Numbered from the stretch's first letter, positions 8,978-64,000 are shown. The stretch: 64,000 bases of DNA from Patescibacteria group bacterium (GCA_024239035.1 JANBVK010000001.1:107010-171009); one strand, 5' to 3'. Program-made: numbers and translations. The notes: a model not told the origin generated them from the sequence alone.

Positions 8978-8988
8978 GGATGCTCCTA

Positions 8989-9056: not shown

Positions 9057-9094
9057 GTAATTACTCGATAATAACGAAAAAGGTTTCTTTATGC

Positions 9095-9137: not shown

Positions 9138-9160
9138 TTTACTACACCCTTCGTGAAATC

Positions 9161-9625: not shown

Positions 9626-9783
9626 AACCCCTCGCTGTGGTGGTTAGGTAAAAGGGTATATACAACGTACCACATTCAGCTTAACTTATAGTAATTAAGC
9701 CGTCAACAAAGCCGTATAGAGACAAAACCGGAATGTGGTAAAATAAAGATTAAAGGTCGCAGTATAATTATCTTTATTTAAAC

Positions 9784-10065: not shown

Positions 10066-10096
10066 GACTCTTAGTAAATTAGCGGAATATCCACAT

Positions 10097-10137
10097 CAGA
10101 ACCTCCGACAAGGCGTCGGAGGTTCTGATTTCTTACT
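10097..10137 (+). terminator. Rho-independent terminator (13-bp perfect stem CAGAACCTCCGAC/GTCGGAGGTTCTG followed by ATTTCTT)
   Basis: Starts about 30 nt after the stop of the ATP-cone gene. Confidence 0.7.
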
Positions 10138-10180
10138 AAAACCTCTTATATTTCACGAACAATAGTGTTAAAATTAAAGG

Positions 10181-10708
10181 ATGAACTTTAAAAACCCATC
10201 TTTTAATATTCTAATTATCGTAACACTCCTGTTACTTAGCGTCTCAGTCTCTAATGCCCATATAAGCATTGGTGAATACGCCGGAACTCACGCCGTATCA
10301 TTTGACCCCGAGCCGCGCTCACCATTTGTCGGAGAAACGGTGGATATGGATTTCTACCTGCGCGATTTGAGCGGTAACTTTGCAAACGAGCCCTTCTTGA
10401 TAACGGTAAACGTTCAAAAAGTCCTGCCTGATGATTCTGAGATTACAATCTTTACCACCGAACCAGAGATTATAATAGACGGCAACTATAAAACGAATTA
10501 CAAATTTACCGAACCGGGACACTATCGCTTGGAATTTAATTTTCAAAGACCGAGCGAACCAGACATTAGTCGCGAAGGTATTTTTGATATTGAAGTACGC
10601 GATACGACTGGCGGAACCTCTACCACAACTATTCTTATTCTCTTGGTTCTCACTGCTATCCTTGCATTTACTGCCAGTTCTATCTTTACCAAACGCAGGA
10701 CATCCTAA
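10181..10708 (+). CDS. Hypothetical secreted protein with C-terminal TM anchor
   Basis: N-terminal signal peptide and a C-terminal hydrophobic segment followed by KRRTS. Confidence 0.5.
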   Translation: MNFKNPSFNILIIVTLLLLSVSVSNAHISIGEYAGTHAVSFDPEPRSPFVGETVDMDFYLRDLSGNFANEPFLITVNVQKVLPDDSEITIFTTEPEIIIDGNYKTNYKFTEPGHYRLEFNFQRPSEPDISREGIFDIEVRDTTGGTSTTTILILLVLTAILAFTASSIFTKRRTS

Positions 10709-10740
10709 CCCTGAAAACTTACCCGTCAACGGGTTCACTT

Positions 10741-13227
10741 ATGACAGAATCGCACGGAAAAATCAGATGTGTAATAACAAAATTTACGCTTGTTATTGGC
10801 GCTACCGTAGCTTTTTGGTTTCTGGGGATAAATTCAGTTTCCGCCGCCAACGTAAGTGTGGTATTACCAAACGGCGGAGAATGCTTAACCGTCGGCACAA
10901 AATTTACCATAGAGATAGCCTCCGATGCTAATCATGTTGCTCTCTATTATCGGGCTGATGGCGCCCAACCAGCTCATCTTGACTCGTCTTTAATCAAACA
11001 CCCTCTCCAGCAAACAACTTGGGGCTGGACCCCTTCAACCGATGACATCTCTGAAACCGGACGCATTTGGGTAGAGGGCCACCTTAATAATCACAACTCC
11101 ACCGGTGACTGGGATGATTCTAATGCCGACTTTGCGGTACGAGCAGATTGTTCTGGCGGCAACGGCGGCAACGGCGGCAACGGCGGTGGCGGCAGCGTTA
11201 CCAGCGCCGGCGGCAAACTAGCACATCGTCCAGAGATTGAAATTATCTCTCCTAAGAAAGGGGTTTTCAACGACTCAATCAAAATTGATTACAAAGCCAC
11301 AGATAAAAACGATGAACTCGGACAAGAAAACCTAGGTCTGGGTAGCGCTCCGGTTTCTATTTTTTATTCAAAAAGCACTGACGTAATAAGACTTAAGAAA
11401 CTCATTGCTAAAAACCTGCCAGCCGTTGGTTTATATGATTGGGACATTACCGATATCCCCGACAGAGACGACTATGCAATTATAATTGAGGCCACTGATA
11501 ATTCTAAAGAAGTAGGTCAAGCAATTTCTGAAACCTTTTCAATCGACAGCACTGTACCGGTGGTCAAAGTATATTCTTCGGGAGCCGAGATTTCCTGGCT
11601 TACTAAAAATAAAACATATTCCTTTATTGAATACGGCCCAATAAGCAACGAATACACTTCAAGAACTGATTTTGATACTGAGCTTACTAAAGAATACTAC
11701 GCATTAATTGAAAATCTCACAGCAAGCACGACTTATTACTTTCGCACTATCGCAGGACGGGCTTTTGACAAAGAGATAACAGTATCAGAAGAGTTCAGTT
11801 TCTCTACTCCGCTCTCACCAACGCAGGTAAGCGGTTTATTTGGGGTAGCCGGCGCAAGCACTACTCTCCTCTCGTGGATAAACCCTCCCGACTCGGATTT
11901 CCAAGAAACCGCCATTGTAAGAAGAGGAGATCGCTTTGCTAAAAACCAGGAAGATGGAGAAGTTATTTTCCGAGGCGATGAAACTTATTACCGTGATTCC
12001 ACCCTTACAAATGGCACTACTTACTATTATTCTATCTTCAGCATTAACTCTAATAATAATGTCTCTCTGCCAGTTAATATCACACTTACCCCCAAGGATA
12101 ATTTACTGCCGGCGCCGGCTCCCCCGCCGCCCGAGGATGATAGCACAAGCACTCTATCCAGAGTCCGTGCTCCTTCCTCTGAGCCCGGTGAAAACGCCGT
12201 CACTCTGCGCTGGAGGAATCCGGAAAGTGAAAATTTTCTCGGCATTCAAATCATCCGAAATGAAGATTCATTACCAGCAAACGCTTTTGACGGCAAGGTA
12301 ATTTTTCGGGGGCGGACTGAGATTTTCAAAGACTCGGGACTAATGGCTGATAAAAGATATTTCTACGGCATTTTTGTTTTTGGATGGACGAGCAATTTCT
12401 CGTCCGCCGCGTTAACTGCCAGCGTGACTCAGCCGCTCACCCAAACCCCCGAACCATTAACTTCCTCAACGTCCCTCCAAGAATTTGAAGAATTTATTAT
12501 TGAAAACAAGCCAAAAATCATCCAAACAGATATCGCCAAATTACAAAACAAGATTAAGGAACTCTCGTCACTCACCGAAAAAGAGTTAGGAATGATCCTC
12601 TCTGAAATTAAAGAAATACTAAATAAAATTAAGGAAGTTTCTATGTTTGTTGTTCCGGAAAAAATTGAAGAAAAACCGTCCCGCATCACCAAAACGCTTC
12701 AATTTGGCGCGGAAGACGAGGAAGTTAGAACCCTCCAGGAAATACTCAGGGGTTTCCCCGACATTTACCCCGAAGGAATTACAACGGGTTACTTCGGAGA
12801 ACTAACACGAAGGGCAATTCAGCGTCTCCAAACAAGTTTCGGTATCGCATCCTCGGGAGATGAAACAACCAGCGGCTACGGATTGGTCGGTTCGAAAACT
12901 AGAATAGCGCTAAACGCCCTAAAAGAAAGAAAGGTGCAAACCGTAATCATTGAACCTGAAAAATTTAACCCTAAAACTACCATAATACCCGTAGGCGGCA
13001 TAGTCCGTTGGATAAACAACGATACGAATGTTTCCTGGCCGGCCGCAGACATTCACGACACTCACTCCAACTATCCCGAGTCCGGCGGTTGTATCAGCAG
13101 CGCCTTTGATGCTTGTCGGGATTTGCAGAAAGGAGAAGATTACTATTTCATTTTCAATATACCCGGCACGTGGGAATACCACGACCACGTAAAACCTGAC
13201 AGAGTTGGGGAAATTATTGTAAAATAA
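10741..13227 (+). CDS. Large secreted multidomain protein with Gly-rich linker, FN3-like beta-sandwich repeats, peptidoglycan-binding (PG_binding_1-like) domain and C-terminal cupredoxin-like His-motif domain
   Basis: Signal peptide ending SVSA-ANV. A GGNGGNGGNGGGGS linker. Repeated TxYYFRT/TTYYYSIF beta-sandwich signatures. EEVRTLQEILRGFPDIYPEGITTGYFGELTRRAIQRLQ resembles a peptidoglycan-binding domain. C-terminal WINNDTNVSWPAADIHDTHS...WEYHDHV. Confidence 0.6.
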   Translation: MTESHGKIRCVITKFTLVIGATVAFWFLGINSVSAANVSVVLPNGGECLTVGTKFTIEIASDANHVALYYRADGAQPAHLDSSLIKHPLQQTTWGWTPSTDDISETGRIWVEGHLNNHNSTGDWDDSNADFAVRADCSGGNGGNGGNGGGGSVTSAGGKLAHRPEIEIISPKKGVFNDSIKIDYKATDKNDELGQENLGLGSAPVSIFYSKSTDVIRLKKLIAKNLPAVGLYDWDITDIPDRDDYAIIIEATDNSKEVGQAISETFSIDSTVPVVKVYSSGAEISWLTKNKTYSFIEYGPISNEYTSRTDFDTELTKEYYALIENLTASTTYYFRTIAGRAFDKEITVSEEFSFSTPLSPTQVSGLFGVAGASTTLLSWINPPDSDFQETAIVRRGDRFAKNQEDGEVIFRGDETYYRDSTLTNGTTYYYSIFSINSNNNVSLPVNITLTPKDNLLPAPAPPPPEDDSTSTLSRVRAPSSEPGENAVTLRWRNPESENFLGIQIIRNEDSLPANAFDGKVIFRGRTEIFKDSGLMADKRYFYGIFVFGWTSNFSSAALTASVTQPLTQTPEPLTSSTSLQEFEEFIIENKPKIIQTDIAKLQNKIKELSSLTEKELGMILSEIKEILNKIKEVSMFVVPEKIEEKPSRITKTLQFGAEDEEVRTLQEILRGFPDIYPEGITTGYFGELTRRAIQRLQTSFGIASSGDETTSGYGLVGSKTRIALNALKERKVQTVIIEPEKFNPKTTIIPVGGIVRWINNDTNVSWPAADIHDTHSNYPESGGCISSAFDACRDLQKGEDYYFIFNIPGTWEYHDHVKPDRVGEIIVK
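11155..11196 (+). repeat. In-frame hexanucleotide microsatellite (GGCAAC/GGCGGC)n encoding a Gly-Asn-Gly repeat
   Basis: ggcggcaacggcggcaacggcggcaacggcggtggcggcagc. Confidence 0.8.
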
Positions 13228-19549: not shown

Positions 19550-21337
19550 TTACACTACCTCCGCCTGATAACACTGCTCGCAATAAACTATCTCCTCCCT
19601 ATCTGGTGCGTATGACGTTTCAAACTCGTTGGGACACCTGCCTTCCAGGTGATGATTATGCTTCGTGGTGTTTTTGTACACCTTGTAATCACACACGCAT
19701 TGACGATGAAAAAGCTGAGGTCGATTTCTCCACGCAACTCTATCAAAGTGTCTACAATTGAAACAAAGCCGAGGTAACGGCAAATTCAGTTGGCGATAAA
19801 ATTGAAGTTCTTGGAAAGTAATACGAAAGGCCGTTGCACAATTTTCTCCACATTGCTCAGGATGATTATTATTTTCATCATGCTGGCATTGAATGACTTC
19901 TTTTAAGATGTCATCACCCAACTTTTGAATTTGATCGGGAAGTTCATCTGAGGTTTTAGTTATCGAATATGCCCTCTCTTTTGGTCTACGCCAGTTGTAA
20001 CCCTGCGCTTTTGCTTCTTTTTCCGTAAGCGGGAAATATTCATGTGCCTGTGTTTCACTGTATCCAAATGCACTCATATCTGGCGGGAAAAATTCACCGT
20101 ATTTATACACCCGTCCTTTTGCATCAACATAAGGCATTTTGTTCATATGTTTAATGATTTTCGGAACCATCGCTCTATAGTCTTCTTTCGAATATTGCCT
20201 ATTTAAAATGCAGTATTGCTTGCTCTTCAATGCTACACAGCCAAACAAATTGTTTGATTGACGACAATTTACTGTATAGCGAGATTCATTTGCCGCAAAT
20301 GATTCAGCTGTAAAAAATGTGTTATAGATACCGTGGCCGGTGGCAATAATATCATAGGTAAGCTCTGTACCTTCGGAAGATGTAACATCCATGCCGTCTT
20401 TATTTGGACCATAAATCACGCTTTGGCAATGAGCCATATTTTGAGCAGTGCCCACAAAAAAACAATTACGAAGCTCTGTTGCATTATAGAGATAATCACC
20501 AGTACAATTTTTTGCTTGTACGCTATGCTGATATTTGACGGGGTGTTTGAGCCATACTTCCATTGCTTGTCCTCGAGCACGCTCAATACCAGACCAAGAA
20601 TCAAGTCTCATTTCTGCAAGCTTTTTTTGATATTCCTCCTTGCCGTAAGATTCATTGAAAATATGATAGCTCTTATTTCGCAACCCTGAACAACCAAAAC
20701 AACTATCACATCCGACACAATCCTGACTGAACCATACGTCGTTACACGAAGTGCAGCTTCGTGAGAAGAAGGTTTTATACGAATCATTGGTGTTGATACA
20801 GTAGTAGCAAAGCTCACATCCTTTACAGTTGACCATATCTATACACTGCTTACTCCTCAGTAATGTGACACTGTAAGCGCTATCCTCTAGGTATCCTGCA
20901 TCAAAACACAAGTAGCAGTTTTTTGCCCATGCTGCGATACTGTAATCACTGTTTGTTTTTTCCATAGACCACATAGGAGCCCATGGAACTTTGTTAAACA
21001 AGTCCCTGATTTGTTCAAAGAATGGTTTTGAGAAATCATACTCCATTCCATAATCCATGGGGTCCCATGCATCACTCTCCCAGTATTCGTAATCATAAAC
21101 TGGCATTGGAGCATCGGGAGGAATTAAGGTAAATATTTTCTTTCCTGTGGCATCACAAGTACGTTCGTAAAGGTATCGCATGTTGCGAAAAGACATCCGA
21201 CGCATTGCTCGGCATTTCCAACAAAACGTCGGCACCGGCACTTTTATCTTCTCATAAAACGCAAAATCTTGAGCCTCAACCTCAAATGAGTTCTTACAGT
21301 TCTGACATAGTCGTTTTTCGGCTTGGAAATCAGACAT
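19550..21337 (-). CDS. Cys-rich multi-CxxC zinc-ribbon protein, paralog 1 of a 4-5 member family (cytoplasmic, 595 aa)
   Basis: N-terminal CQNCKNSF...CWKCR and C-terminal RCPNEF...YCEQCYQAEVV zinc-ribbon-like motifs. Internal CKGCELCYYC and DCVGCDSCFGC clusters. No signal peptide. Confidence 0.8.
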   Translation of the reverse strand: MSDFQAEKRLCQNCKNSFEVEAQDFAFYEKIKVPVPTFCWKCRAMRRMSFRNMRYLYERTCDATGKKIFTLIPPDAPMPVYDYEYWESDAWDPMDYGMEYDFSKPFFEQIRDLFNKVPWAPMWSMEKTNSDYSIAAWAKNCYLCFDAGYLEDSAYSVTLLRSKQCIDMVNCKGCELCYYCINTNDSYKTFFSRSCTSCNDVWFSQDCVGCDSCFGCSGLRNKSYHIFNESYGKEEYQKKLAEMRLDSWSGIERARGQAMEVWLKHPVKYQHSVQAKNCTGDYLYNATELRNCFFVGTAQNMAHCQSVIYGPNKDGMDVTSSEGTELTYDIIATGHGIYNTFFTAESFAANESRYTVNCRQSNNLFGCVALKSKQYCILNRQYSKEDYRAMVPKIIKHMNKMPYVDAKGRVYKYGEFFPPDMSAFGYSETQAHEYFPLTEKEAKAQGYNWRRPKERAYSITKTSDELPDQIQKLGDDILKEVIQCQHDENNNHPEQCGENCATAFRITFQELQFYRQLNLPLPRLCFNCRHFDRVAWRNRPQLFHRQCVCDYKVYKNTTKHNHHLEGRCPNEFETSYAPDREEIVYCEQCYQAEVV

Positions 21338-21440
21338 AGCGTGTTGAGGCGAAATCCTGAGGAAAACCGAAGGGCTCCGGTTCGATAGTGAACTTTTGTT
21401 TGCAATTCTGACATTTCGAAGACACTGAGCTTGTCGAATG
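21338..21440 (-). pseudogene. Relic 5' fragment of a Cys-rich paralog (encodes CQNCKQKFTIEPE..DFA then stop) immediately upstream of the paralog 1 start
   Basis: tccggttcgatagtgaacttttgtttgcaattctgacat matches the paralog 2 5' coding region 23231..23271 at 32 of 41 positions. Frame is disrupted. Confidence 0.5.
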
Positions 21441-21464
21441 TGGTTTCGTTTCGGAATTCATAAA

Positions 21465-21502
21465 TTAATTACGTAATTAAATACGTATTTTAATACGTAA
21501 AT
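21465..21502. promoter_or_regulatory. Array of three TACGTA-centred palindromes at 12-bp spacing (AATTACGTAATT, AATACGTATT, TAATACGTAAAT) in the paralog 1 upstream region
   Basis: TACGTA at 21470, 21482 and 21494. The first two are perfect palindromes. Confidence 0.5.
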
Positions 21503-23290
21503 TCATACTACCTCCGCCTGATAACATTGTTCGCAGTAAACAATCTCCTTCCTCTCCGGAGCGTATGATGTCTCAAACTCGTTAGGGCATCTTCCTTCCA
21601 AGTGGTGGGAATGTTTTGTAGTGTTTTTGTATTTTGTAGCTTGCTCTGAGCCTGTCGAAGAGTCACACACGCACTGGCGGTGCCAAAGGTTTATAGGATT
21701 TCTTCTTCTGAAACGTGCATAATACCGGCAGTTGGGACATAGCCTAGGGAGAGGGATATTCATTTTTCTATAAAAATTGAGTTCATCAGAAACAATTCGG
21801 AAAGCCGTTACACACCTCTCTCCACATTTGCCCTGATGTGCACAACTAATAACTTCTTTCACAATACTGTCATCAACGTCTCTTATATGGTCAGGAAGTT
21901 GCTCTGCAGAGACAGTGATCTGATAAGAAGGTTTTTCGAGGTCACGCCAATTAAATCCTTGAGCAAGAGCGCGTTCTTTATCCAGCGGAAAGTAATCATA
22001 GGCCGGCGTTTCATTATAGGGGAAGGGAGACAGTTCTGTTGGAAAGAATTCTCCGTGAGCATATATCTTTCCCTTTTTATCTTTATATGACGCCTCGTTC
22101 AAGTGGTCTATAATTTGAAGAACAAGCTCCTCATATTTTTCTTTAGTATATTCTTTGTTTAAAATGCAATACTCCTTCTTGCGAAGTCCGATACACCCAA
22201 ATAAATCATGGCATCCGTTTTTACATATGTCACAATAGGTAATATTTCGCACTTCTGGCCAGGCATCCGAAGATAATTTCACATTGTAGGCATTCACGCC
22301 CATGGTGTTCACCTCATAGTTCAATTCCATCACGCAACACCCGTTGTTGATATCCATGGAATCCTTCGCTTTATTTACAAAAAGGCAATATCGGCAGTTT
22401 TCAAGTTCAGCCCCATTGAAACAGTGATAACAATCTTTAGAGTATGAAATCGTGTTTCCAACGACATTTGTTACGTTTTTAGTATAGGCATGTTTGTGCA
22501 ATGCTTTCTTTCTCATTGCTTCAAATTTAGCGGCATACGTTGAAAAATTCTTATACGAACCCGTATCAATGTCTTTCATTTTTTGCTTATAGTCCTCTTT
22601 GGTACATTGCTTATTTTCAAACACGTGAGACTTGTTCCAAATATTGCTGCTTAAAAAGCAATCTTGGGAACCCCTGGCATCGAAACAGAACGAAAGCCCC
22701 GTAGAACTCGCACAGTTTTCAACAAATATAAGTTGTGACACCTCGAGGCATTCGATACATTCATAACAATACTCTCCCCGGAGCACTATGAAACAATCAA
22801 CCAAGTTTTTAGAGTTCAAAATTCTGTAGCTATACATCGAGTCCTCGTTGTCCGAGCCTGAAAAAATGAGATAGCAATTTTTGCAATTTGCAATCTGGTT
22901 TGCGTATTCACAATTCACGCATTTATCAACTTGGAGCGCTACTCGAGGTACTTTATTCTGCAGCTCCTTAAATTGTGTAAAGAACGGTTTATTAAAATTG
23001 TATTCTCTTCCATATTGCGTTCCATCCCACTTATCTGAATACCAGCACTCTCGGCAATATACGGGGAAAGTCACATCCTGAGGATACATAGCAATAATAT
23101 CCTTGCGACAAAGGTCACATATTCGTTTATGAAGGCTTCTCTCATTTCGCCAAGAAAGTCTGCGTTGCAGCCGGCACGGAGGACACCACGTAGGCGCCGG
23201 CACTTTTATCTTCTCATAAAACGCAAAATCATCCGGTTCGATGGTAAACTGGTTTTTGCAGTTTTGACACTGTCTGGCCTCTTGTGTCAT
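21503..23290 (-). CDS. Cys-rich multi-CxxC zinc-ribbon protein, paralog 2
   Basis: Same architecture and termini as paralog 1 (CQNCKNQF...CPPCR at the N-terminus, YCEQCYQAEVV at the C-terminus). 35-bp nucleotide-identical patch with paralog 1 (GCCGGCACTTTTATCTTCTCATAAAACGCAAAATC). Confidence 0.8.
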   Translation of the reverse strand: MTQEARQCQNCKNQFTIEPDDFAFYEKIKVPAPTWCPPCRLQRRLSWRNERSLHKRICDLCRKDIIAMYPQDVTFPVYCRECWYSDKWDGTQYGREYNFNKPFFTQFKELQNKVPRVALQVDKCVNCEYANQIANCKNCYLIFSGSDNEDSMYSYRILNSKNLVDCFIVLRGEYCYECIECLEVSQLIFVENCASSTGLSFCFDARGSQDCFLSSNIWNKSHVFENKQCTKEDYKQKMKDIDTGSYKNFSTYAAKFEAMRKKALHKHAYTKNVTNVVGNTISYSKDCYHCFNGAELENCRYCLFVNKAKDSMDINNGCCVMELNYEVNTMGVNAYNVKLSSDAWPEVRNITYCDICKNGCHDLFGCIGLRKKEYCILNKEYTKEKYEELVLQIIDHLNEASYKDKKGKIYAHGEFFPTELSPFPYNETPAYDYFPLDKERALAQGFNWRDLEKPSYQITVSAEQLPDHIRDVDDSIVKEVISCAHQGKCGERCVTAFRIVSDELNFYRKMNIPLPRLCPNCRYYARFRRRNPINLWHRQCVCDSSTGSEQATKYKNTTKHSHHLEGRCPNEFETSYAPERKEIVYCEQCYQAEVV

Positions 23291-35292: not shown

Positions 35293-35328
35293 GATTTAAA
35301 TTATCTTACTCTCTTAATTTATAGCGAA

Positions 35329-35547
35329 TCAGTCGGTTATTTTCCACTGGACGCGGCCGACGGTACCATCAGTCAAACGCACCTTAACGCCGCGCGGATG
35401 GACGTTCTTTGAGGTTAGAATCTCCTTTACGATCCCCTGGGTGTAATTGTTCGTGCCATAATGCTTTTTCTCAATGATCCAGACGGCATCCCCCGGCTTG
35501 ATCTCACTCCGTCTCGGCGGCGTAGGATTATCAATTCCACGGGTCAT
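35329..35547 (-). CDS. YwbE/DUF2196 family small protein
   Basis: PGDAVWIIEKKHYGTNNYTQGIVKEILTSKNVHPRGVKVRLTDGTVGRVQ matches the YwbE consensus (GIVKDILT...HPHGIKVRL..G.VGRVQ). Confidence 0.65.
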   Translation of the reverse strand: MTRGIDNPTPPRRSEIKPGDAVWIIEKKHYGTNNYTQGIVKEILTSKNVHPRGVKVRLTDGTVGRVQWKITD

Positions 35548-35593
35548 GAATTTATTCTCCTAATTTCTTGTTGGTTGATTCCTTAATATCCTA

Positions 35594-36028
35594 TTACTCT
35601 AAACGTATTCTTGTATTAACGTTAAATCCATTCCTAGCAATATCGGGTAATTCACTTGCTAGAAATCTCGGTAATACGGTTACTTTTGTAACATCAACCC
35701 AGTCAATTTCTGCCAACTCGTGTCCTCCGTGGGTGCTAGCAGCCACATTATGGTTTAGGTAATCTTTGGAATTTTTAATATGAAAATACAGCCCTGGATT
35801 GCTATAACCATTTTTTTCTCTTATTTGATGGATATATATTAAGTTACTAATCTCTGGCTTAACATGCGTTTCTTCAATTAATTCTCTTTCAAGGGCCGAG
35901 AGTATATTTTCACCGGGTTCCATACCACCTCCGGGCAGACACCAAAAATCAGCCGAGGCGTTGTTCCTCACTAAAAGAAACTTGCCTTCATATTCTATTA
36001 TTGCTCTAACTGAGATTGTGTTATTCAT
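35594..36028 (-). CDS. NUDIX hydrolase
   Basis: Nudix box GGGMEPGENILSALERELIEETHV. Confidence 0.85.
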   Translation of the reverse strand: MNNTISVRAIIEYEGKFLLVRNNASADFWCLPGGGMEPGENILSALERELIEETHVKPEISNLIYIHQIREKNGYSNPGLYFHIKNSKDYLNHNVAASTHGGHELAEIDWVDVTKVTVLPRFLASELPDIARNGFNVNTRIRLE

Positions 36029-36055
36029 GAATCTATTTATAGTGATCTCGTCAAA

Positions 36056-36331
36056 TTATTTTTTCCGCATCAACAACAAGCGACGCTCTGGCGTATAGTG
36101 CCACCACGGATGCGACGGAGCGCCGTTCATAAAAGCCACGGCAGCCATAAAAGTGTCCAGTAAACACGGATCATGCCGCTTACCGGTTTTCTTATTAAGT
36201 CTCTCGTAGAGCTTCAATGGGTCATTGTTTTTAAGCTCACTTGGTCTTGTAATACCCACCTCGCGAAAACACCGCGCTATTTTCGGCCCCACGTTCGGGA
36301 TATCTTCTAATTTCTTAATCATACTTTGCAA
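36056..36331 (-). CDS. Helix-hairpin-helix domain protein (Cdd1/mitomycin-resistance-like HhH)
   Basis: LEDIPNVGPKIARCFREVGITRPSEL HhH motif. 91 aa. Confidence 0.5.
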   Translation of the reverse strand: MQSMIKKLEDIPNVGPKIARCFREVGITRPSELKNNDPLKLYERLNKKTGKRHDPCLLDTFMAAVAFMNGAPSHPWWHYTPERRLLLMRKK

Positions 36332-36376
36332 AAACTTTTTCTCCCCCCTAATTTTACCACCTCTTTCACTTAAAAC

Positions 36377-36466
36377 CCTAACGGTTCAACGACACCCATC
36401 GTTGAGCCGTTAAGATTACCGCACGTCTTCACTTCATCCACATATGTGGACAAAGTGAAGACACGC
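36377..36466. repeat. Two-hairpin intergenic repeat, copy 2 (both hairpins intact: AACGGTTCAACG/CGTTGAGCCGTT and GTCTTCACTT-caTCCACATATGTGGAca-AAGTGAAGAC)
   Basis: Matches copy 1 at 3672..3762 except the loop of hairpin 1 (ACCCAT here, GGGTG there). Confidence 0.6.
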
Positions 36467-36523
36467 AAAAATCCAGAAAAAAACAAAAAGCCGCACGCAG
36501 AGCATGCAGCTTTCTGCGGCGGC
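36466..36523 (-). terminator. Rho-independent terminator of the PurM-like gene (GCCGCCGCAGAAAGCTGCATGCTCTGCGTGCGGC plus TTTTTGTTTTTTTCTGG on the minus strand)
   Basis: GC-rich hairpin followed by a long T-run in the minus orientation, 26 nt after the stop. Confidence 0.75.
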
Positions 36524-36548
36524 TGTTACTAGCCATAACGTGTTGCGG

Positions 36549-37739
36549 TCAGCGAACGCCGAGTGTTGCTCCCGAATACTCGAGATCTTTCGGCTTGATG
36601 ACGACCTTCTTCTCATCACTCCGCTCAATGTGTCCGGCATAGCATGCGCCGTAGCGATTGAGGTACTCGTCTCCTTTGAGCACGTCCCAAACTTTCCTCA
36701 CATCAGCTTCCGGCACATAGAGCGCGAAACCCGCACCCATGTTGAAGTTTCCGTATGCCTCCCAATCATCCACCGGACCATGTCTCTGCAAAAAATTGAA
36801 GATCGGTAGTTGCTTCGGCAGGCACTCGATGACGTAGGCGAACGGTTGTGTTGCCCGCATGAGCTTGCGCCAGCCGTGCCCCGTGATGTTCACTGCGTAG
36901 TGGATGTTCACACCACGATCCAAGCAATCCTCGACGAGCGCGACATAGATATACGTAGGGTCGAGTAATGTTTCGCCGTACGTTCGGCCATCGTCGAGTT
37001 TGGTGAGATAGCCGTCCGGCAGAGCGCGCGACGGGAACCATTGCGGAAAGAAAAGATGCGCTAGTCGTCGCCAGAAACCGTCTCTCCGCCCGGCTATCCT
37101 TCGAGCCATCGTGAGGGCGTTCGCGTGGATACCGGAACTCTCGATGAGAATGATAGCATCGCCATGCTGGATGCTGTCTGCCGTGATAAGCCGCTCCTTC
37201 GGCTTCACAATGCCCATCGCTGAACCGGAAAGAACAACCGCCCCCGGCATAACCACGCCCTTGAGAGTTGGTGTTTCGCCGCCACCCCACACACAACGCG
37301 CCAGCGTGCACGCCCTCTTCCAACCCCCGACGAGATCGCGACATCTCTTCTCGTCATTAAACCAGTCAGAGTCGCCGACGGCAAGGTGCATCGCCACCGA
37401 GAGCGGAAGCGCGCCGAGTGTAACCATGTCGTTCACAATCATCGCCACAGTGTCCTGCGCGATGTGATCGTAGTACGACTTACCGGTTAGGCGGTACATA
37501 GCATCAGCTACGAGGTTTTTCGTACCGAGACCCTCCTCAACATGGGCAAAGTAGCTTTTTGCCGCCTCGATGAGATAAGCACTTTCACCCCGACTCATCT
37601 CGACTTCCCGAAACTCGCCATTATTGAGACGACTGATGTTTGTTGCTGTCTCATGCCCGGCGAGTTGCGCCATCCGCTTGAACGGATCCATTGCGCCGTA
37701 ATCAACACCAACGCCGACATATGTCATTCCTCCTATCAT
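36549..37739 (-). CDS. AIR-synthase-related (PurM superfamily) protein, high-GC gene
   Basis: EEGLGTKNLVADAMY (PurM DGVGTK-like) N-terminal domain plus a C-terminal PurM-like domain. About 55% GC against a 40% window background. Confidence 0.6.
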   Translation of the reverse strand: MIGGMTYVGVGVDYGAMDPFKRMAQLAGHETATNISRLNNGEFREVEMSRGESAYLIEAAKSYFAHVEEGLGTKNLVADAMYRLTGKSYYDHIAQDTVAMIVNDMVTLGALPLSVAMHLAVGDSDWFNDEKRCRDLVGGWKRACTLARCVWGGGETPTLKGVVMPGAVVLSGSAMGIVKPKERLITADSIQHGDAIILIESSGIHANALTMARRIAGRRDGFWRRLAHLFFPQWFPSRALPDGYLTKLDDGRTYGETLLDPTYIYVALVEDCLDRGVNIHYAVNITGHGWRKLMRATQPFAYVIECLPKQLPIFNFLQRHGPVDDWEAYGNFNMGAGFALYVPEADVRKVWDVLKGDEYLNRYGACYAGHIERSDEKKVVIKPKDLEYSGATLGVR

Positions 37740-37921
37740 TGACCGCTCCTTTTTCAGTTAGAAATGAACAAATTAAGCTATTTACTCTAGCTTGATTACC
37801 AAAATCACACTAGCGAAAACATCATAAAAAATCAACCATCTGTACCACCTCTTAGTAAATAAAAGGGACGCCCACTGTTTCCAATGTGCGTCCCGTTAGG
37901 ATGAATTTTCCGGCAAGCGAC

Positions 37922-38824
37922 TTATACGCTCGCGACTTCAAGGAGCTCGTCAAGCAGCGAACTGAACACTTGCTCGTGCCGCTCGAGATAGGCGGTGGCT
38001 ACCTGCACTGCCACAGCACCGCTCTCTCGATACTCCCGAATGTCTTTTCCGTGAGTGATGCCGCCAACGCCGATAATCTGAATGCGATCCGGTAGAAGTT
38101 CTCGCAGTTGCCGAACTTGCCCGAGACCAATCGGCTTCATCGCAGGTCCCGCGAACCCGGCAAAGCCACCGCCCGGCGTAATTCTCGGCTTCGCGCCGTT
38201 GTAGCTGAACGCGTTGGGGAAGGTATTCACCGTCGTGACAACCTTGGCCACTTTCGACGCGCCGATAACCTGCGCTAATCCAGCGAGCGCGAAAGGGTCC
38301 GATAAAGGAGATATCTTGACCGACACTTTTGCGTCGGCTCCGACTCTCTCCTCGACACGATGCAGAATCTCGGTGACCAGCGCCGGATCGAAACATGCGA
38401 TGCGCTTCTGCGTACTACCCTGCCACACGTTTGGGCAGCCAAGATTCTGCTCCACGAGGTCTGCCCCACCACCGAACGCGAGCTCCGTGAGGTTTGCATA
38501 CTCCTCCGGTGAGAAACCAGCGACACTCACGAAAAGCGGTTTGTTTTCGCCGTGAGCCACGGCGACCATTTCGGAAATCGTTTCCCTGTAGTACGGCGCG
38601 CCGCGGTTCGGAAGCCCGAGCGAATTGAGCGAGAACATCGGCCCCGCCCAGTAGACATCGCCGGTGTTACCCGTTCGCGGCTCCACGGTGATCGAGCCAA
38701 CCATGACCGCCGCACTGGCTGAACGCGAAAGCTCTTTCACTTCTTCCAGCGATCTGCATGTCCCCGCCGCGTTCATCAGCGGGTGTTCCAATCGGATACC
38801 TGCGACTTCAGTTTGCAGCTCCAT
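37922..38824 (-). CDS. Dihydroorotate-dehydrogenase-like flavoprotein (class 1A-like, active-site Cys in NLGCPNV), high-GC gene
   Basis: NAAGTCRSLEEV, NLGCPN, KISP and GVGGI motifs of a DHOD TIM barrel. Confidence 0.65.
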   Translation of the reverse strand: MELQTEVAGIRLEHPLMNAAGTCRSLEEVKELSRSASAAVMVGSITVEPRTGNTGDVYWAGPMFSLNSLGLPNRGAPYYRETISEMVAVAHGENKPLFVSVAGFSPEEYANLTELAFGGGADLVEQNLGCPNVWQGSTQKRIACFDPALVTEILHRVEERVGADAKVSVKISPLSDPFALAGLAQVIGASKVAKVVTTVNTFPNAFSYNGAKPRITPGGGFAGFAGPAMKPIGLGQVRQLRELLPDRIQIIGVGGITHGKDIREYRESGAVAVQVATAYLERHEQVFSSLLDELLEVASV

Positions 38825-39241
38825 GCCTTTTTCTTCCTCTCTTCGATTGGGAATGTACGATTTCAGCCCGACTATCGGGCTGATTACTAAAATCCGGAAC
38901 GTAGATCTCAGGAGGGCAGAATGACCAGAGAATGTGAAACGGGCCTGTATTGCAACCCATCGCCGACCTCCTTCAGACGATCGTATTCCTTCGCGAGCAC
39001 TTCAGACAACGTTCTATTGAGACTACTCTCGTCTACGTTTGATACAAACCCCACTCCAAAATGATGGAAACCCTTAACATCAGTTCCAGAGCTGAATGTA
39101 TGGAACAGAACAGAAAGAAAGAAATGACAGGACATATACGCCTCCCAATATGAGTAACAAGCAAGTCAAGGTTCTGCGGAAAAGGATGACACCAGCAAGA
39201 CAAATTGTCAATTCCCACCCTTCGCCATTAAAAATGGTCAG

Positions 39242-39315
39242 TGGGCGGAACAGGATTCGAACCCGTGACCTTTCGGATGTGACCCGAACGCTCTAACCAA
39301 CTGAGCTACCCGCCC
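39242..39315 (-). tRNA. tRNA-Val (anticodon CAC), no encoded CCA. The high-GC island abuts its 3' end.
   Basis: GGGCGGGTAGCTCAGTTGGTTAGAGCGTTCGGGTCACATCCGAAAGGTCACGGGTTCGAATCCTGTTCCGCCCA cloverleaf. Confidence 0.8.
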
Positions 39316-39391
39316 ATCATCCACACCACTATTGTACCCCAAGAAACGGAGCCAACAGTTCTTGCTATCACACAAGAATTATTTTTCTCTC

Positions 39392-39763
39392 CTACTGCAA
39401 CTCTACCGTAGCTCCTGCTTCTTCTAGCTTTTTCTTAAGCTCATCTGCTTCCTCCTTATTCAATCCCTCCTTAATCGTCTTCGGAGCACCATCAACTATA
39501 TCTTTTGCTTCCTTAAGACCAACACCGGCCGCTTCCTTAACTATCTTAATCACATTAATCTTCTGATCCCCCGCAACTTTAAGCACTACATTATAAGAAC
39601 TTTTCTCTTCCTTATCGCCGGCTTCTTCTCCGCCGCCTCCAGCCGTAGCGGGCATTGCAGCCGAGACGCCAAACTTTTCCTCCAGCGTTTTCACAAGCTC
39701 GGAGAGCTCAACCACTGAAAGTTTTTCGATTTTTTCTATTATATCACTAAATTTTTCTGCCAT
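39392..39763 (-). CDS. rplL: Ribosomal protein L7/L12
   Basis: [33 protein letters not shown] ... [16 protein letters not shown]...GLKEAKD. Confidence 0.95.
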
Positions 39764-39771
39764 AATATTTT

Positions 39772-40275
39772 TTATTTATTTTCGACCATTTTTGATTTCT
39801 GATCCAAAACATAAAGTAACATTTGGAGCGGCGCAGAGAGCATTCCTACAAGCTGCCCCAAAAGAACTTCCCTGCTTGGCAACTGACCTAAACTAAGAAT
39901 CTCCGCACTCTCAACAAATGCTTTATCTTTTATATTAAAACCGCCGAGTATCTTAAGAGAGCCCTTCTCCTGCTTGGAAAACTTATACACCGTGGATGCA
40001 GTCTCATGAACGTCTTTTGGTGAAAATACCACACCCGTCTGGCCCTCAAAATTTTTTGGATCAAACTCCATCCCAATCTTCTCAAATACAAACTTAAGAA
40101 GGCGTTTCTTCACCACACGAAACACACCACCAATTGCCCGCACTTGTCCTCTAAAATCATTTAACTTATTTACTGATAACCCCGTAAAATCAACTAAAAC
40201 CACCGTCTCGCTTCCTTTGAGATTTTCCACTCCCTGCTCAACTGCTTTATTCTTTTGATCTTTTGTTTTTGCCAT
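39772..40275 (-). CDS. rplJ: Ribosomal protein L10
   Basis: [42 protein letters not shown], adjacent to rplL. Start taken at MAKTKDQ. Confidence 0.9.
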
Positions 40276-40394
40276 AAAAAAAGCGGCATCGTGCCGCAAA
40301 ACATAAAAATCCTTACTCTCCTACATAGGACTTATCCGCCTATTGGCGGACCTATGATCTGCGGATACGTGTACATATTAGCCTACCTCAAGTA
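40276..40394 (-). promoter_or_regulatory. Probable ribosomal-protein L10 leader (autoregulatory 5' UTR) with hairpins GCGGCAtcgtGCCGC and CCGCCtattGGCGG
   Basis: Structured region of about 120 nt between an upstream terminator and the rplJ start. This is the conserved position of the L10 leader in bacteria. Confidence 0.45.
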
Positions 40395-60802: not shown

Positions 60803-62551
60803 CTACACCACCTCCGCCTGATAACACTGCTCGCAATATACAGTCTCCGGTCTATCAGGAGAATACGAAGACTGCATAGACTTTCCACATTTCACGCATT
60901 TTCTCTCATACAACTCCAGCACGATAGAGCCGAACTTTTTTCTTTTCTCTGCCAACCGTACACTGTAATGTTTCTGGGGTAAGGGAAGATTATATCTCCT
61001 GTAAAACTCTAATTCTGCCTTTATATAGCGGGATTTCTTATTATTTTCGCTGTCAAAGACAACTTTATTCAAAATATCGTCTTTCACCTCACGAATATCC
61101 TTAGGAAGATCTTTTGAATCAACGATTTCTCCTTCCACCTCATACAAAGTCTCCTGGATATCTTCTGTCCGATATCCATACCTCCTCGCCGTCTCAACGT
61201 CATCATATCCTTTATAGGAGGTAGCAATAGAAATATTGTAGGGAAACGGTGAAAGTTTGGGTGGGAAAAATTCTCCATATTCACCTTTCTCTAACATTTT
61301 TGCCTTTACTTTATCTACCATCTCCCAATAGTCTTTCTCAGCGTACTGCTTATTGAGAATACAGAACGATTTATTTTTAAGTCCGATGCAACCAAAACAG
61401 TCGTGGCAGTTAATACAGAGATCACAATATTCTATCTCACGGCAATCATCAACATCAATGGAAAATTTAATCCCGTAGTTATTGTCACCTGCCCAAGATT
61501 CATAACTAAACTCCGTACCTACACCGCCAACAATATCGTATGAATCTCTGGTTTTCGTAACTCCAATGGAATATGCCACGTTTTCCCCACCAATAATATA
61601 AAAACAAGCGTAACAATTTTTGGAATCCTTAATATAATCACCAAAACTTGCGACCGCTCGGTCGTTGTGAGTTTCTTTATAAAACGCCTTCTTTTTCAAT
61701 TCGGTGAACTTTCCTTTTAAAGAATTTAAAGATTCTCGGTCGCCAAGATTTAACGCTCGTATCTTCTCCTCATAAGCCTTTTTAGTCAACGGTTCATTAA
61801 AAAAGTGGTACTTTTTGTGACGCAAATTCACACAACCAAAACAGTATTCGCAATCTCGACAATCGAAAAGGAAGTAGGAATAGAGACAATGCTTCGAGTG
61901 CTCCACAAAAAAACAATTGAAGAGATCAGAACTTTCGAAACAATCGTAGCAGGTATCAGAGTTTCTCAGTGCAAAACCATCAAAGCAACTTCGCGAATCA
62001 ATCAAAGAAATACTATACGCACTATCTTCAGATTGGTAAGAATCAAAAATTAAATAGCAGTTTTTCAGTCGAGTCGAGTTATTGGTATAATCACTCCTAA
62101 TGCTTGTACTATCAATGTGGAGATTGGGCCGAGGAACGTTCCGCATAAGCTCTCCAAATTGATCAAAGAATCCCCGGCTATCGGTGTAGGCGCTGGCATA
62201 ATCGTTAGGATCCCATTCCTCGCCAAACCACATCTGATGTTCATAAACTTTGTATGGTGTGGTAGGGGGGTACTGAGAAATAATCGACTTTTTAGAAAAA
62301 GATGATACTACCTTAAAAAGATTGTAAGAATTCGTAAAAGCAATTTTTCTCCGTATACGTTCCTTGGGAGATAACGTTGGCAGAGGCACCCGCATTTTCT
62401 TGTAAAACTCAATATCTTCCGGACGAACGTAAAATTTCTCACCAGAAAATCGGCAAGTCCTCCACTGACCTCCCTTCTCATCTAATTCAAGTTTGGAAAA
62501 GTATTCATCCAGCGCTTTATCAAATTGTGGAGTTTTGCTCACTTGATTCAT
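60803..62551 (-). CDS. Cys-rich multi-CxxC zinc-ribbon protein, paralog 3 (N-terminal ribbon Cys lost)
   Basis: Same conserved blocks (KNCYLIFDS, CRDCEYCFGC, CDLCINCHDCFGC, GEFFPPKLSPFPYN, LEFYRRYNLPLP) and YCEQCYQAEVV terminus. Confidence 0.8.
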   Translation of the reverse strand: MNQVSKTPQFDKALDEYFSKLELDEKGGQWRTCRFSGEKFYVRPEDIEFYKKMRVPLPTLSPKERIRRKIAFTNSYNLFKVVSSFSKKSIISQYPPTTPYKVYEHQMWFGEEWDPNDYASAYTDSRGFFDQFGELMRNVPRPNLHIDSTSIRSDYTNNSTRLKNCYLIFDSYQSEDSAYSISLIDSRSCFDGFALRNSDTCYDCFESSDLFNCFFVEHSKHCLYSYFLFDCRDCEYCFGCVNLRHKKYHFFNEPLTKKAYEEKIRALNLGDRESLNSLKGKFTELKKKAFYKETHNDRAVASFGDYIKDSKNCYACFYIIGGENVAYSIGVTKTRDSYDIVGGVGTEFSYESWAGDNNYGIKFSIDVDDCREIEYCDLCINCHDCFGCIGLKNKSFCILNKQYAEKDYWEMVDKVKAKMLEKGEYGEFFPPKLSPFPYNISIATSYKGYDDVETARRYGYRTEDIQETLYEVEGEIVDSKDLPKDIREVKDDILNKVVFDSENNKKSRYIKAELEFYRRYNLPLPQKHYSVRLAEKRKKFGSIVLELYERKCVKCGKSMQSSYSPDRPETVYCEQCYQAEVV

Positions 62552-62583: not shown

Positions 62584-64000
62584 TCATACTACCTCAGCTT
62601 GATAACACTGTTCGCAATAAACGACTTCTGGTCGGTCAGGGGCATAGGTTGTTTGAATTGACTTACCACATTTCGCACACTTCCGCGCGTAGAGTTTGAA
62701 GGGCCCCCGGCGGCGGAGACGATCAAGATAACGGCAGTTAAAACATTTCAGCGGTACAGGAATGAGCATCTTTCGATAAAACTCCAACTCTGGCTGAATT
62801 AAGCGGTAATTGAAACTACAACCCGTACACTTCAGCACTTCCTTCACAATGCTGTCAGGAATGTCTTTAATATGATCCGGTATATCTTCGGGTTGAATCG
62901 TTTCGTGGCCTTTCGTACGGGGAATATCATCTTCCCATCGAAATCCTTCAGCAACTGCCTGCTCTTTAGATAAAGGATAATTCTCTTGGGCTGGCGTCTC
63001 GTTGTAGGCGAAAAACGCAAGTCTTAGTGGAAAATATGAACCATATAATCCATCCTGTTCCATCTGTCTAACTATCTGATCTCGCATTTTACTGTAGTCT
63101 GATTCACTATACTGTTTATTTAAAATATAGTACTTTCCATTCTTCAACCCATCACATCCGAAACATTCCTCTGATCTACTCATGCCAAAACAGTACCGAA
63201 GTCCTCTGCAAGAATCACACCCCCATGACCCAATTACATTGTACGAGTATCCAACCGCAACGGTTTCCAACAAAAGCTCAGAGTCATACCCATATCCCAT
63301 AACGTCATAGCTATCCCTAGTAGATTTTGTAGCAAACTCAAATTTACAATCCTCTGATTCAGTTACCTCGAAACAGTGTTTACAATTCTTCGAATTGAAA
63401 ATATACTCCCCTTCTGAACCAACAGACTTTAAATTATTATTCTGCCTACGAGGGAACTGAAGCGCATGCTCCTCAAATTTCTCAAGCGCATCTTGAACCT
63501 TTTTATAACTCCCGGCAATCTCGGCAACTCTTTTCTCATATTCTTCTTTAGACAACGCTTCATTAAAAAAGTGATACTGCTTGTTACGCAAATTAACGCA
63601 CCCAAAGCAATCTTGACAGTTACTACAACCAAGTAAAAACCACGAGTTCAAACAGCTCATCACGTTCTGACCGTACCGCACGCCGTGGCTTTTATGCCCG
63701 TTAATGCATTCGTAAGATTGTTCAAGACTAATCGCGAAATAGATATCCAAAGAATCCCGACAATCTTTCACCCCACGCGAATAAGCTACATCTTCGTTAT
63801 AACCGCTATTAAATATTAAATAACAATTCTTGTTATATCCGGCGAAATTTTGGTATTCACTATTAACACTCGTACCTATCGTTGTATAAACGCTTTTCTT
63901 CGGTACCTTCAGCATTAACTCCTGTAATTGATCAAAGAACGCCCTCGAAGGATTATAATCTCGGGCAAAAGACTTTGCATCCCATTTATCTGAGTTATAA
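62584..64000 (-). CDS. Cys-rich multi-CxxC zinc-ribbon protein, paralog 4, 5'-truncated by the window edge
   Basis: The frame remains open upstream of the ORF-track Met to the window end (reads ...YNSDKWDAKSFARDYNPSRAFFDQLQELMLKVPKK, homologous to the WDxxxYGxEYxFxKPFFxQ block of the other copies). Ends YCEQCYQAEVV. Confidence 0.75.
   Translation of the reverse strand, partial: YNSDKWDAKSFARDYNPSRAFFDQLQELMLKVPKKSVYTTIGTSVNSEYQNFAGYNKNCYLIFNSGYNEDVAYSRGVKDCRDSLDIYFAISLEQSYECINGHKSHGVRYGQNVMSCLNSWFLLGCSNCQDCFGCVNLRNKQYHFFNEALSKEEYEKRVAEIAGSYKKVQDALEKFEEHALQFPRRQNNNLKSVGSEGEYIFNSKNCKHCFEVTESEDCKFEFATKSTRDSYDVMGYGYDSELLLETVAVGYSYNVIGSWGCDSCRGLRYCFGMSRSEECFGCDGLKNGKYYILNKQYSESDYSKMRDQIVRQMEQDGLYGSYFPLRLAFFAYNETPAQENYPLSKEQAVAEGFRWEDDIPRTKGHETIQPEDIPDHIKDIPDSIVKEVLKCTGCSFNYRLIQPELEFYRKMLIPVPLKCFNCRYLDRLRRRGPFKLYARKCAKCGKSIQTTYAPDRPEVVYCEQCYQAEVV

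Follow-up and report, generated by a model that had tools for sequence, protein, structure and literature searches.

Two GC-rich units of purM and pyrD type, probably acquired laterally, downstream of a tRNA-Val gene in a Patescibacteria chromosome

Patescibacteria (candidate phyla radiation, CPR) are thought to be host-dependent for nucleotides, and their biosynthetic genes are patchy. This report concerns a segment of 64,000 nucleotides from a Patescibacteria chromosome (GCA_024239035.1, JANBVK010000001.1:107010-171009; hereafter the window) whose host is nearest to Jorgensenbacteria-type Paceibacteria by ribosomal protein L10 (RplJ), and in which two GC-rich genes, one encoding a dihydroorotate dehydrogenase (DHOD)-like flavoprotein and the other a protein of the PurM superfamily, follow each other downstream of a tRNA-Val gene. 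An earlier note on this DNA had read the pair as a horizontally acquired island placed at the 3′ end of the tRNA and possibly forming a two-enzyme module. We consider it likely that the locus consists of two separate, self-contained units, a pyrD-type DHOD and a purM-type aminoimidazole ribonucleotide (AIR) synthetase, which were laterally acquired and stand in tandem in a rearrangement-prone site downstream of tRNA-Val.

The closest described systems are two enzyme families, one regulatory circuit and one class of mobile DNA. AIR synthetase (PurM, phosphoribosylformylglycinamidine cyclo-ligase, EC 6.3.3.1; Escherichia coli, PDB 1CLI; family TIGR00878) combines two superfamily domains and the motifs DX4GAXP, GGET and SSGxH(A/S)N. 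DHODs of class 1A (Lactococcus lactis DHODA, PDB 1DOR; Trypanosoma cruzi DHOD, PDB 3W1A) are soluble TIM barrels of about 300 residues with a catalytic cysteine and without N-terminal extension, whereas those of class 2 (human DHODH, PDB 1D3G; E. coli PyrD, PDB 1F76) have an N-terminal membrane/quinone-binding domain and use serine as the base. Purine and pyrimidine synthesis are co-regulated in E. coli by the PurR regulon, which includes purMN, pyrC and pyrD and has a 16-bp palindromic operator. Finally, tRNA-associated genomic islets and islands are marked by atypical composition and codon usage, an empty site in a close relative and a co-oriented tRNA just upstream, together with an integrase and a duplicated tRNA 3′ segment.

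On the minus strand the window carries grpE, dnaK, a membrane protein gene, dnaJ, rplJ, rplL, tRNA-Val(cac), a 416-bp stretch, the DHOD-like gene, a 182-bp spacer and the PurM-like gene, followed by the genes for a Cdd1/HhH protein, a NUDIX protein, YwbE/DUF2196, an alpha/beta hydrolase and CutA1, then mraZ, rsmH and the division cluster. GC content reaches 0.51–0.60 over 36400-37600 and 37800-39000, against a window mean of 0.429. Measured against the 55 other open reading frames (ORFs) of at least 100 residues, whose GC at third codon positions (GC3) is 0.415±0.058 with a maximum of 0.547, the PurM-like ORF has GC 0.557 (z=3.4) and GC3 0.636 (z=3.8) and the DHOD-like ORF GC 0.587 (z=4.1) and GC3 0.663 (z=4.3). 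They are the top two GC and GC3 outliers among the 57 ORFs and also fit the codon usage of the window least well (z=-3.2 each), and the GC-rich two-gene island described before is thus apparent in sliding GC, GC3 and codon usage alike. The excess is limited to coding sequence, the 182-bp intergenic spacer having a GC of 0.396 and the 416-bp stretch (38825-39240) one of 0.454, which is background. The composition breaks reported in the earlier note are real, but the upper one lies at about 38.83–38.90 kb and not at the tRNA-Val 3′ end (39242). Such abrupt steps could also arise if GC-rich foreign reads had been joined into an AT-rich contig during assembly or binning, a chance that we regard as practically negligible: the intergenic leaders and terminators are rich in AT, like the host, similar GC-rich units occur within AT-rich flanks in many independent samples, and four such loci (L002, L003, L004 and L007), from four sources, are identical. 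An identical gene order in three assemblies made independently (a 621-kb NCBI contig, a 729-kb ENA scaffold and a 20.6-kb Logan contig) shows that the arrangement is no artefact of assembly.

The boundaries of the block were placed by comparison with the nearest sampled relatives, picked by RplJ (three loci: L119, L121 and L122). In L121 (RplJ 86% identical) the DNA aligns at about 80% identity over 40282..38896, that is, through rplJ, rplL, tRNA-Val and a 345-bp spacer, and 37 bp later the alignment resumes over 36494..36422. This jump from 38896 to 36494 marks L121 as the apparent empty site and 36495-38895 (2.4 kb) as the putative inserted block, which would separate a small ORF from the terminator found after this ORF in L121. 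The block is absent from the other two relatives too. In L119 (RplJ 88% identical) homology runs through rplL, ends exactly at the tRNA-Val 3′ end (39241), resumes over 36420-36349 and then again from the hydrolase gene on, the site being occupied by genes for a Pol-beta-type nucleotidyltransferase, a GC-rich 212-aa ORF, a lytic transglycosylase and a 137-aa ORF. The Jorgensenbacteria locus L122 (L10 64% identical) reads dnaK, x, dnaJ, rplJ, rplL, tRNA-Val, mraZ, with mraZ directly after the tRNA. With different cargo in each relative, the site downstream of tRNA-Val appears to be a hot spot. Since the relatives do not hold the two genes at this place, the reading of the locus as an island acquired horizontally in a tRNA-linked variable site stands. 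Integration directly at the tRNA 3′ end, as first suggested, does not, for the block begins 345 nt past the tRNA, between the small ORF and its terminator. Within the L119 cargo (3632-6111 of that locus) the nucleotidyltransferase is weakly MntA-like, and the 212-aa ORF has a GC3 of 0.62 and is without family match.

What had been described as a gene-poor stretch of 400 bp beside the tRNA is mostly native DNA (38896-39240) common to L121 and includes a conserved 75-codon ORF; the hairpin noticed in it, CAGCCCGACTATCGGGCTG, is indeed present, at 38864-38882, but it is no orphan and is the hairpin of a 5′ leader, conserved elsewhere, that belongs to the DHOD transcription unit. The 75-codon ORF (38908-39135, minus strand) is conserved at equal length in L121, with 57 of 76 residues identical; 14 of the codon changes are synonymous and 19 nonsynonymous, an ambiguous pattern. 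Searches of Pfam, NCBIfam, PADLOC and PHROGs gave no family match, and the ORF may either encode a small protein or lie in conserved DNA that is not coding.

It is doubtful that the two genes came together in a single event, as one circular element that recombined at the TAATCAG core of the leader and derived from a donor in which they were already adjacent. Both genes are missing together from L121, TAGTAATCAG marks the left junction and TAGTAACAG the right one whereas the empty site has TTAATCAG only once, and past the stop codon of PurM stands a sequence (..GCTAGTAAC..) similar to GCTAATGTAAC, the -10 region of other DHOD promoters. The junction repeat is, however, short and imperfect, with a chance probability estimated at about 0.1, the units are adjacent in no sampled genome, and homology to other units breaks between the genes. 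The TAGTAATCAG/TAGTAACAG repeat was also considered as a mark of integration in its own right and set aside as too short to be given weight.

The independence of the two units is further indicated by the genomic partners of their homologs, which were collected from 80 species-representative loci plus L001-L004 and L123 for PurM and from 25 loci plus L124 and L125 for DHOD. No DHOD homolog lies within 10 kb of the PurM homolog in any of 82 loci, and a PurM homolog accompanies none of 19 de-duplicated DHOD-homolog loci (0 of 24 when scored individually). PurM homologs lie near large PurL in 13 Patescibacteria-type loci (in 10 of them at a distance of 205 nt or less) and near PurN (nine loci), PurH (five), PurB (four) and PurD (three). 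As for DHOD, a homolog 86% identical to that of the window belongs to a pyrF-DHOD-pyrE operon in a Paceibacterota genome (L124, L125), PyrF (orotidine monophosphate decarboxylase) is encoded directly upstream in L092, L094, L095 and L103, and a PyrE-like protein downstream in L093 and L094. In the window itself the two genes have separate leaders and separate terminators, and a 21-nt unique spacer parts their DNA-homology blocks. The canonical partners found elsewhere point to enzymes of two separate pathways, and we infer that the window holds ordinary purine- and pyrimidine-pathway enzymes that are neighbours by chance and form no coupled module.

A dedicated two-enzyme module, in which ATP-dependent activation or cyclisation would be followed by flavin redox chemistry on a reduced heterocycle or nucleobase-like compound and which would have arrived as one island, is very improbable. 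In its favour, the two genes stand side by side on one strand with equally high GC, their leaders are homologous, both proteins fall below their equivalog cutoffs, and the active-site arrangement of the DHOD family is unusual. Set against these features are the lack of linkage in about 100 informative loci, the separate leaders, terminators and homology blocks and the canonical partners, as well as the intact substrate-ring and catalytic residues of the DHOD and the intact DX4GAXP motif of PurM.

The DHOD-like protein matches PF01180 (DHO_dh) over residues 3-296 of 300 and has no N-terminal extension, and its top hidden Markov model and PDB matches are to class 1A enzymes (E=1e-32, compared with 6e-9 for class 2). 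Residues were counted in 115 homologs using L. lactis numbering. The catalytic cysteine of the N-L-x-C-P-N loop is found in 114 of them, that of the window being Cys130, in agreement with the active-site cysteine (NLGCPNV) first noticed in this gene, and the orotate-binding residues Asn67, Asn127, Asn132 and Asn193 together with Lys164 are kept in 106 to 115. The family departs from class 1A in that the position of Lys43, the FMN and orotate lysine of strand 2, is glycine in all 115 homologs, that of Ser194 is threonine in 112, and a basic residue stands three residues past the NAAG strand (Lys in 97 and Arg in 17, including Arg24 of the window protein). Aligned to human DHODH, the sequence of which was checked against PDB, this basic residue, which follows strand 1 in both, falls on the class-2 lysine of AAGFDK (NAAGTC(K/R) in the present family), the glycine on the strand EIGSVT and the Asn-Thr pair on Asn284-Thr285. 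In contrast to class 2 enzymes, the window protein lacks the N-terminal membrane/quinone-binding domain, starting about 15 residues before strand 1, its base is Cys and not Ser, and its overall similarity to them is far lower than to class 1A. The residue pattern thus describes this family as a putative soluble, Cys-based DHOD with class-2 placement of the lysine that contacts flavin mononucleotide (FMN), and the pyrF and pyrE context argues for a working DHOD. Such an enzyme would oxidise dihydroorotate to orotate with FMN and Cys130 as the base, and, by analogy with class 1A, with fumarate or O2 as acceptor.

Both domains of the PurM superfamily, PF00586 (AIRS, 39.5 bits) and PF02769 (AIRS_C, 32 bits), score above their cutoffs in the PurM-like protein, and the gene is followed by a strong terminator of its own, as had been noted. 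The motifs DMVTLGALP (DX4GAXP), GGGETP (GGET) and SSGIHANAL (SSGxHxN) align with those of the PDB PurM 9k00, and the match to solved PurM structures reaches E=4e-30. The protein resembles E. coli PurM in domains and motifs, and likewise in the purine genes that adjoin its homologs. It differs from the solved structures by an identity of only about 30% and by an insertion of about 33 residues (217-249) that splits the match, and its family is mainly confined to Patescibacteria, with some homologs in Acidobacteriota (Vicinamibacterales). The enzyme would convert formylglycinamidine ribonucleotide (FGAM) to AIR with ATP, in which case DHOD and PurM would serve the pyrimidine and the purine pathway separately.

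The two window genes have homologous 5′ regions, and this homology extends to the leaders that precede members of both families elsewhere. Nineteen leaders could be aligned, revealing an 8-bp hairpin followed by the conserved tail AAAUYGUWCAUUCCCAAC. In the hairpin 85% of cells are paired and four pairs show changes on both sides; none of 500 shuffles reaches its score and register-shift controls collapse. A covariance model built from this alignment (R1) finds only two sites in the window, with 51 bits (E=2.6e-11) for the DHOD leader and 41.6 bits (E=9e-9) for that of PurM, and over 1.14 Mb of loci its matches lie solely upstream of PurM or DHOD genes. Among sequences outside the training set, R1 matches 50 nt upstream of the L124 pyrF (60.4 bits) and upstream of the L123 PurM gene (37 bits). 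A scan of 36000-39500 with Rfam 15 at permissive thresholds (E up to 5) returned only the tRNA and chance miRNA-type hits.

Most units have the sequence TTGATT-17 nt-TA(A/G)TGT upstream of the hairpin, read as a promoter from the alignment; the consensus scan did not call a promoter there. With this element as promoter, the hairpin would lie at the 5′ end of the mRNA. The PurM unit of the window retains the promoter-like element (37808-37836), and its leader region is homologous to those of the PurM loci L005 and L022 and the DHOD loci L104 and L086. The homology of the DHOD unit stops just before the hairpin, so that this gene is probably read through from the upstream small ORF, its usual promoter having been lost.

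The common leader on both units suggests shared regulation or a shared vehicle; it may act as a regulatory RNA or be bound by a protein, or simply belong to such a vehicle. As in the PurR regulon of E. coli, purM and pyrD (or pyrF-pyrD-pyrE) share an element between promoter and start codon; here, however, the element is a covarying hairpin with an 18-nt conserved tail in the 5′ untranslated region, and it has no Rfam match. Considered as a palindromic operator, the tail AATTGTACATTC fits a perfect palindrome at 10 of 12 positions, with T/C variation in its left half that shows no compensating change. A possible expression platform would be pairing of the tail with the Shine-Dalgarno sequence: in minimum-free-energy folds UUCC often pairs with GGAG or GGAA, in weak and unconvincing helices of about 4 bp (z from -0.04 to -2.95). 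A PyrR-type site was considered and rejected: the AGAGAGG of the DHOD leaders overlaps the Shine-Dalgarno sequence and is missing from PurM leaders, and the Rfam PyrR model gave no hit. Nine viral matches to the leader tail were likewise discarded, seven of ten occurrences being in tail-fibre coding repeats (…NCTFPTLNQNTTG…) and none exceeding about 24 bits with the full leader model. In the phage contigs L110-L118 the 18-mer AAATTGTACATTCCCAAC encodes NCTFPT within a repeated tail-fibre motif (…GTPxSGxLxNCTFPTLNQNTTG…) and is unrelated to the leader.

The GC richness of the two genes recurs across the phylum. Coding GC is about 0.52–0.60 for both clades in many Patescibacteria classes, with host flanks of 0.32–0.56. 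Almost all of 84 loci have a PurM homolog that exceeds its 10-kb flanks in GC, the difference reaching 0.23. In Nomurabacteria, for instance, the homolog has GC 0.553 in flanks of 0.321 (GC3 0.647, with about 0.24 in neighbours), in L020 0.542 in flanks of 0.323, and in Berkelbacteria 0.600 in flanks of 0.397. The PurL, PurH, PurB and PurD genes that adjoin PurM are likewise GC-rich. DHOD homologs have GC 0.56–0.60 in flanks of 0.37–0.55, and the pyrF-DHOD-pyrE operon of L124 forms an island with GC3 0.65–0.77 among neighbours of 0.33–0.45. DHOD units of different genomes are 80–91% identical in nucleotide sequence over the gene, 120–220 nt upstream and 60–100 nt downstream; for the most similar ones (L086, L087 and L096, 90–91%) the remaining flank DNA does not align, and the homology boundaries of the window DHOD recur at 37857 and 38891-38893. 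The DHOD units are thus discrete and stand in contexts that are unrelated to one another. Units of both clades are roughly 1.1–1.3 kb long and occur in unrelated flanks.

In a neighbour-joining tree the GC-rich Patescibacteria PurM copies form a short-branched crown, the tightest cluster of which mixes the labels Nomurabacteria, Vogelbacteria and Blackburnbacteria (Microgenomatia) with a bin labelled Woesearchaeota. The window PurM is 74–78% identical to copies labelled Blackburnbacteria, Nomurabacteria, Vogelbacteria and Saccharibacteria, and L10 is at most 68% identical outside the genus-level group, a phylogenetic incongruence that speaks for lateral transfer. PurM copies of Vicinamibacterales, 64–65% identical and at a host GC of 0.60–0.63, form a clade inside this crown, a nesting which implies inter-phylum transfer; these bacteria (L049-L070) hold the Patescibacteria-type PurM in a conserved purine context. 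L009 (PEXD01000040.1) is a 4-kb contig binned as a Woesearchaeota archaeon; its PurM unit is 76% identical to that of the window, has the same leader and follows genes for tRNA-Cys and tRNA-Leu, which reflects either misbinning or cross-domain transfer.

Sibling units are linked to tRNAs and to mobility genes. At least nine of 21 leader-bearing loci have a co-oriented tRNA 170–450 nt upstream (L002, L008, L009, L022, L030, L059, L088, L090 and L093, with Gly, Ala, Leu, Tyr, Pro, Ile, Arg, Leu and Arg, respectively), and in three more the tRNA lies further upstream with a gene between, namely that of a LAGLIDADG endonuclease in L086, a helix-turn-helix (HTH) protein in L089 and a large serine recombinase (LSR) in L123. 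An LSR gene adjoins DHOD in L096 and PurM in L123, the two recombinases being 73% identical; related LSRs flank sibling units in L096, L123, L028, L031 and L012, and in five of the 10 loci that hold a recombinase gene it lies within 1 kb of the unit. The endonuclease gene of L086 (222-821) is free-standing, and it and the HTH-domain gene of L089 (856-1521) each lie between tRNA and DHOD unit. In L096 the DHOD unit and a 516-aa LSR are found between tRNA-Ile(gat) and tRNA-Ala(tgc) (7500-11300), with nested inverted repeats of 100 nt at 99% identity (8072-8171 and 9587-9686) and of 70 nt at 97% (9681-9750 and 11097-11166) that may represent a structure able to invert or move, or else a chimera produced by amplification. 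A phage vector was rejected, since neither protein has a relative in 2.9 million viral contigs. Membership of a defence system found no backing either, with no PADLOC match for either gene and only generic purM and DHOD homology in PHROGs.

Like tRNA-associated islets, the window block is atypical in GC, GC3 and codon usage and has a co-oriented tRNA just upstream; a close relative shows the empty site, the cargo at the site differs between relatives, and sibling units elsewhere adjoin serine recombinases. The block differs from such islets in having no integrase and no duplicated tRNA 3′ segment, in starting 345 nt past the tRNA, in a cargo of one housekeeping-type gene per unit with its own promoter/leader and terminator, and in that one unit type is found beside many tRNAs. 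On this comparison the locus itself is an ordinary laterally acquired tRNA-linked islet with two pathway genes. The units would have been inserted between the small native ORF and its terminator, perhaps as cargo of small tRNA-proximal integrative elements or mobilised by such elements in trans, the mobility gene being absent here. A broader proposal, which we put forward tentatively and judge rather unlikely, is that Patescibacteria share a pool of mobilisable GC-rich single-operon cassettes (purM, pyrD, pyrF-pyrD-pyrE) inserted after tRNAs by way of LSRs or homing endonucleases, all with one previously undescribed leader RNA (the hairpin and AAAUYGUWCAUUCCCAAC) that would sense a common signal and control purine and pyrimidine genes, and with the DHOD as a distinct class that joins a class-1A scaffold and Cys base to a class-2 FMN lysine.

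Several observations weigh against the reading of two laterally acquired pathway units. The window has no recombinase gene, the repeat search found no meaningful direct (att-type) repeats, and the best match to a partial copy of the tRNA-Val 3′ end within 35300-39240 scores 11 against a null of 11.9±1.3 (the lack of integrase and att repeat had been remarked on at the outset and holds for the window); the sole flanking repeat is the weak one discussed above. Proximity to tRNAs is not significant when all homologs are pooled and compared with a local null from the same loci, and the leader-bearing subset, the only one to show the pattern, was defined after the data had been seen. As regards function, the proteins score below the equivalog cutoffs of their families (183.7 bits against 301 for NF002702, and 163.7 against 236.35 for TIGR00878, the latter a classification threshold rather than a mechanistic feature, which sets the PurM-like protein in a divergent subfamily), the class-1 Lys43 is replaced in every DHOD homolog, and in the window no other purine genes lie near the PurM-like gene and no pyrimidine-pathway genes beside the DHOD-like gene. 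Were the other steps of both pathways lacking from the genome as a whole, a purM and a pyrD gene standing alone would be difficult to explain. The search for a donor gave best protein homologs of 83% (PurM) and 91% (DHOD) identity and no closer source, so that the proposed BLASTP comparison yielded homologs but neither a donor lineage nor a recurring pair. Lastly, third-position identity between PurM copies is only 0.44–0.58, yet GC3 stays near 0.6 in hosts with GC3 of 0.24–0.45. Simple recent transfer does not fully account for this persistence, since at such divergence the copies should have drifted towards the composition of their hosts. Possible causes are selection, GC-biased gene conversion and repeated transfer from Patescibacteria donors of moderately high GC.

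The same excess, seen in dozens of genomes, would fit a maintained property better than many recent transfers, and the relatives compared are three only. It could accordingly be argued that the block is ancestral and was deleted in the sampled relatives, with high GC produced by selection or GC-biased gene conversion on conserved, recombining genes. We regard this as quite improbable: gain is more parsimonious than repeated loss, because three different relatives are without the block and the outgroup L122 passes from tRNA-Val directly to mraZ. In addition, homologs stand at different loci with unrelated flanks in different genomes, the ribosomal and chaperone genes of the window do not have raised GC3, and remoter PurM homologs (below 60% identity) in AT-rich Microgenomates-type genomes match the GC of their hosts.

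Under lateral acquisition, the locus offers a base-resolved case of gene gain in the CPR, with an empty site in a sister genome and discrete units, each equipped with a leader and a terminator. It suggests that genes for purine and pyrimidine synthesis pass between CPR lineages that are only remotely related and retain a coding composition that is foreign and rich in GC, and leads beyond the original finding to a shared pur/pyr leader, a DHOD family with relocated lysine and GC-rich mobile pur/pyr units across the CPR. The literature search found no account of GC-rich pur/pyr genes in the CPR or of this type of DHOD. The features of the locus are collected in Table 1.

Table 1. Features of the tRNA-Val downstream region, in window coordinates.
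Feature	Position	Strand	Evidence and remarks
tRNA-Val(cac)	39241..39315	-	ARAGORN; Rfam tRNA 64.5 bits; its 3′ end (39241) starts the region that differs between relatives
Native spacer, outside the putative insertion	38896..39240	-	aligns with L121; GC 0.454
Putative inserted 2.4-kb block (DHOD unit and PurM unit)	36495..38895	-	absent from L121 (apparent empty site), L119 and L122
DHOD leader motif	38845..38885	-	8-bp hairpin 38864-38882, then tail GAAAUCGUACAUUCCCAAUC; R1; DNA homology ends at 38891-38893
DHOD-like flavoprotein, PyrD-type, 300 aa	37922..38824	-	PF01180 152 bits; NF002702 184 bits; class-1A PDB E=1e-32
Predicted intrinsic terminator of the DHOD unit	37857..37894	-	hairpin 37865-37894 and T-run; DNA sequence conserved in other DHOD units; homology with L096, L085, L086, L089, L104 and L090 ends at 37857
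Putative promoter and leader of the PurM unit	37740..37836	-	inferred -35 TTGATT 37831-37836, -10 TAGTGT 37808-37813; motif 37756-37796
PurM (AIR synthetase)-type gene, 396 aa	36549..37739	-	PF00586, PF02769; purine neighbours of homologs
Predicted strong intrinsic terminator after PurM	36483..36517	-	16 pairs, then TTTTTGTTTTTTT; from the T-run onward homologous to the terminator of the L121 small ORF
Native palindrome with 30-nt arms, just beyond the putative insertion	36414..36473	.	inverted repeat I1; kept in L121

The interval from the PurM terminator to the Cdd1 gene contains two consecutive native hairpins (36414-36473 and 36380-36411). The first shows a compensatory change in L121 (GTCTTC..GAAGAC and GTCCTC..GAGGAC), and the second is kept in L119. 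Further along, the NUDIX protein that adjoins the island (35594-36028, minus strand) matches the PADLOC candidate defence family PDC-S07 (E=2e-10), and the YwbE/DUF2196 gene (35329-35547, minus strand), part of the segment 35321-36348 that is absent from L119, has a GC3 of 0.63, the third highest in the window.

Elsewhere in the window, four large ORFs on the minus strand form two adjacent pairs (19550-21337 and 21503-23290; 60803-62551 and 62584-63915) and are apparently all paralogues. They have no Pfam match save a weak C-terminal treble-clef zinc finger in two of them, and the first pair (19550-23290) has a clear common N-terminal motif, CxxC…DFAFYEKIKVP.

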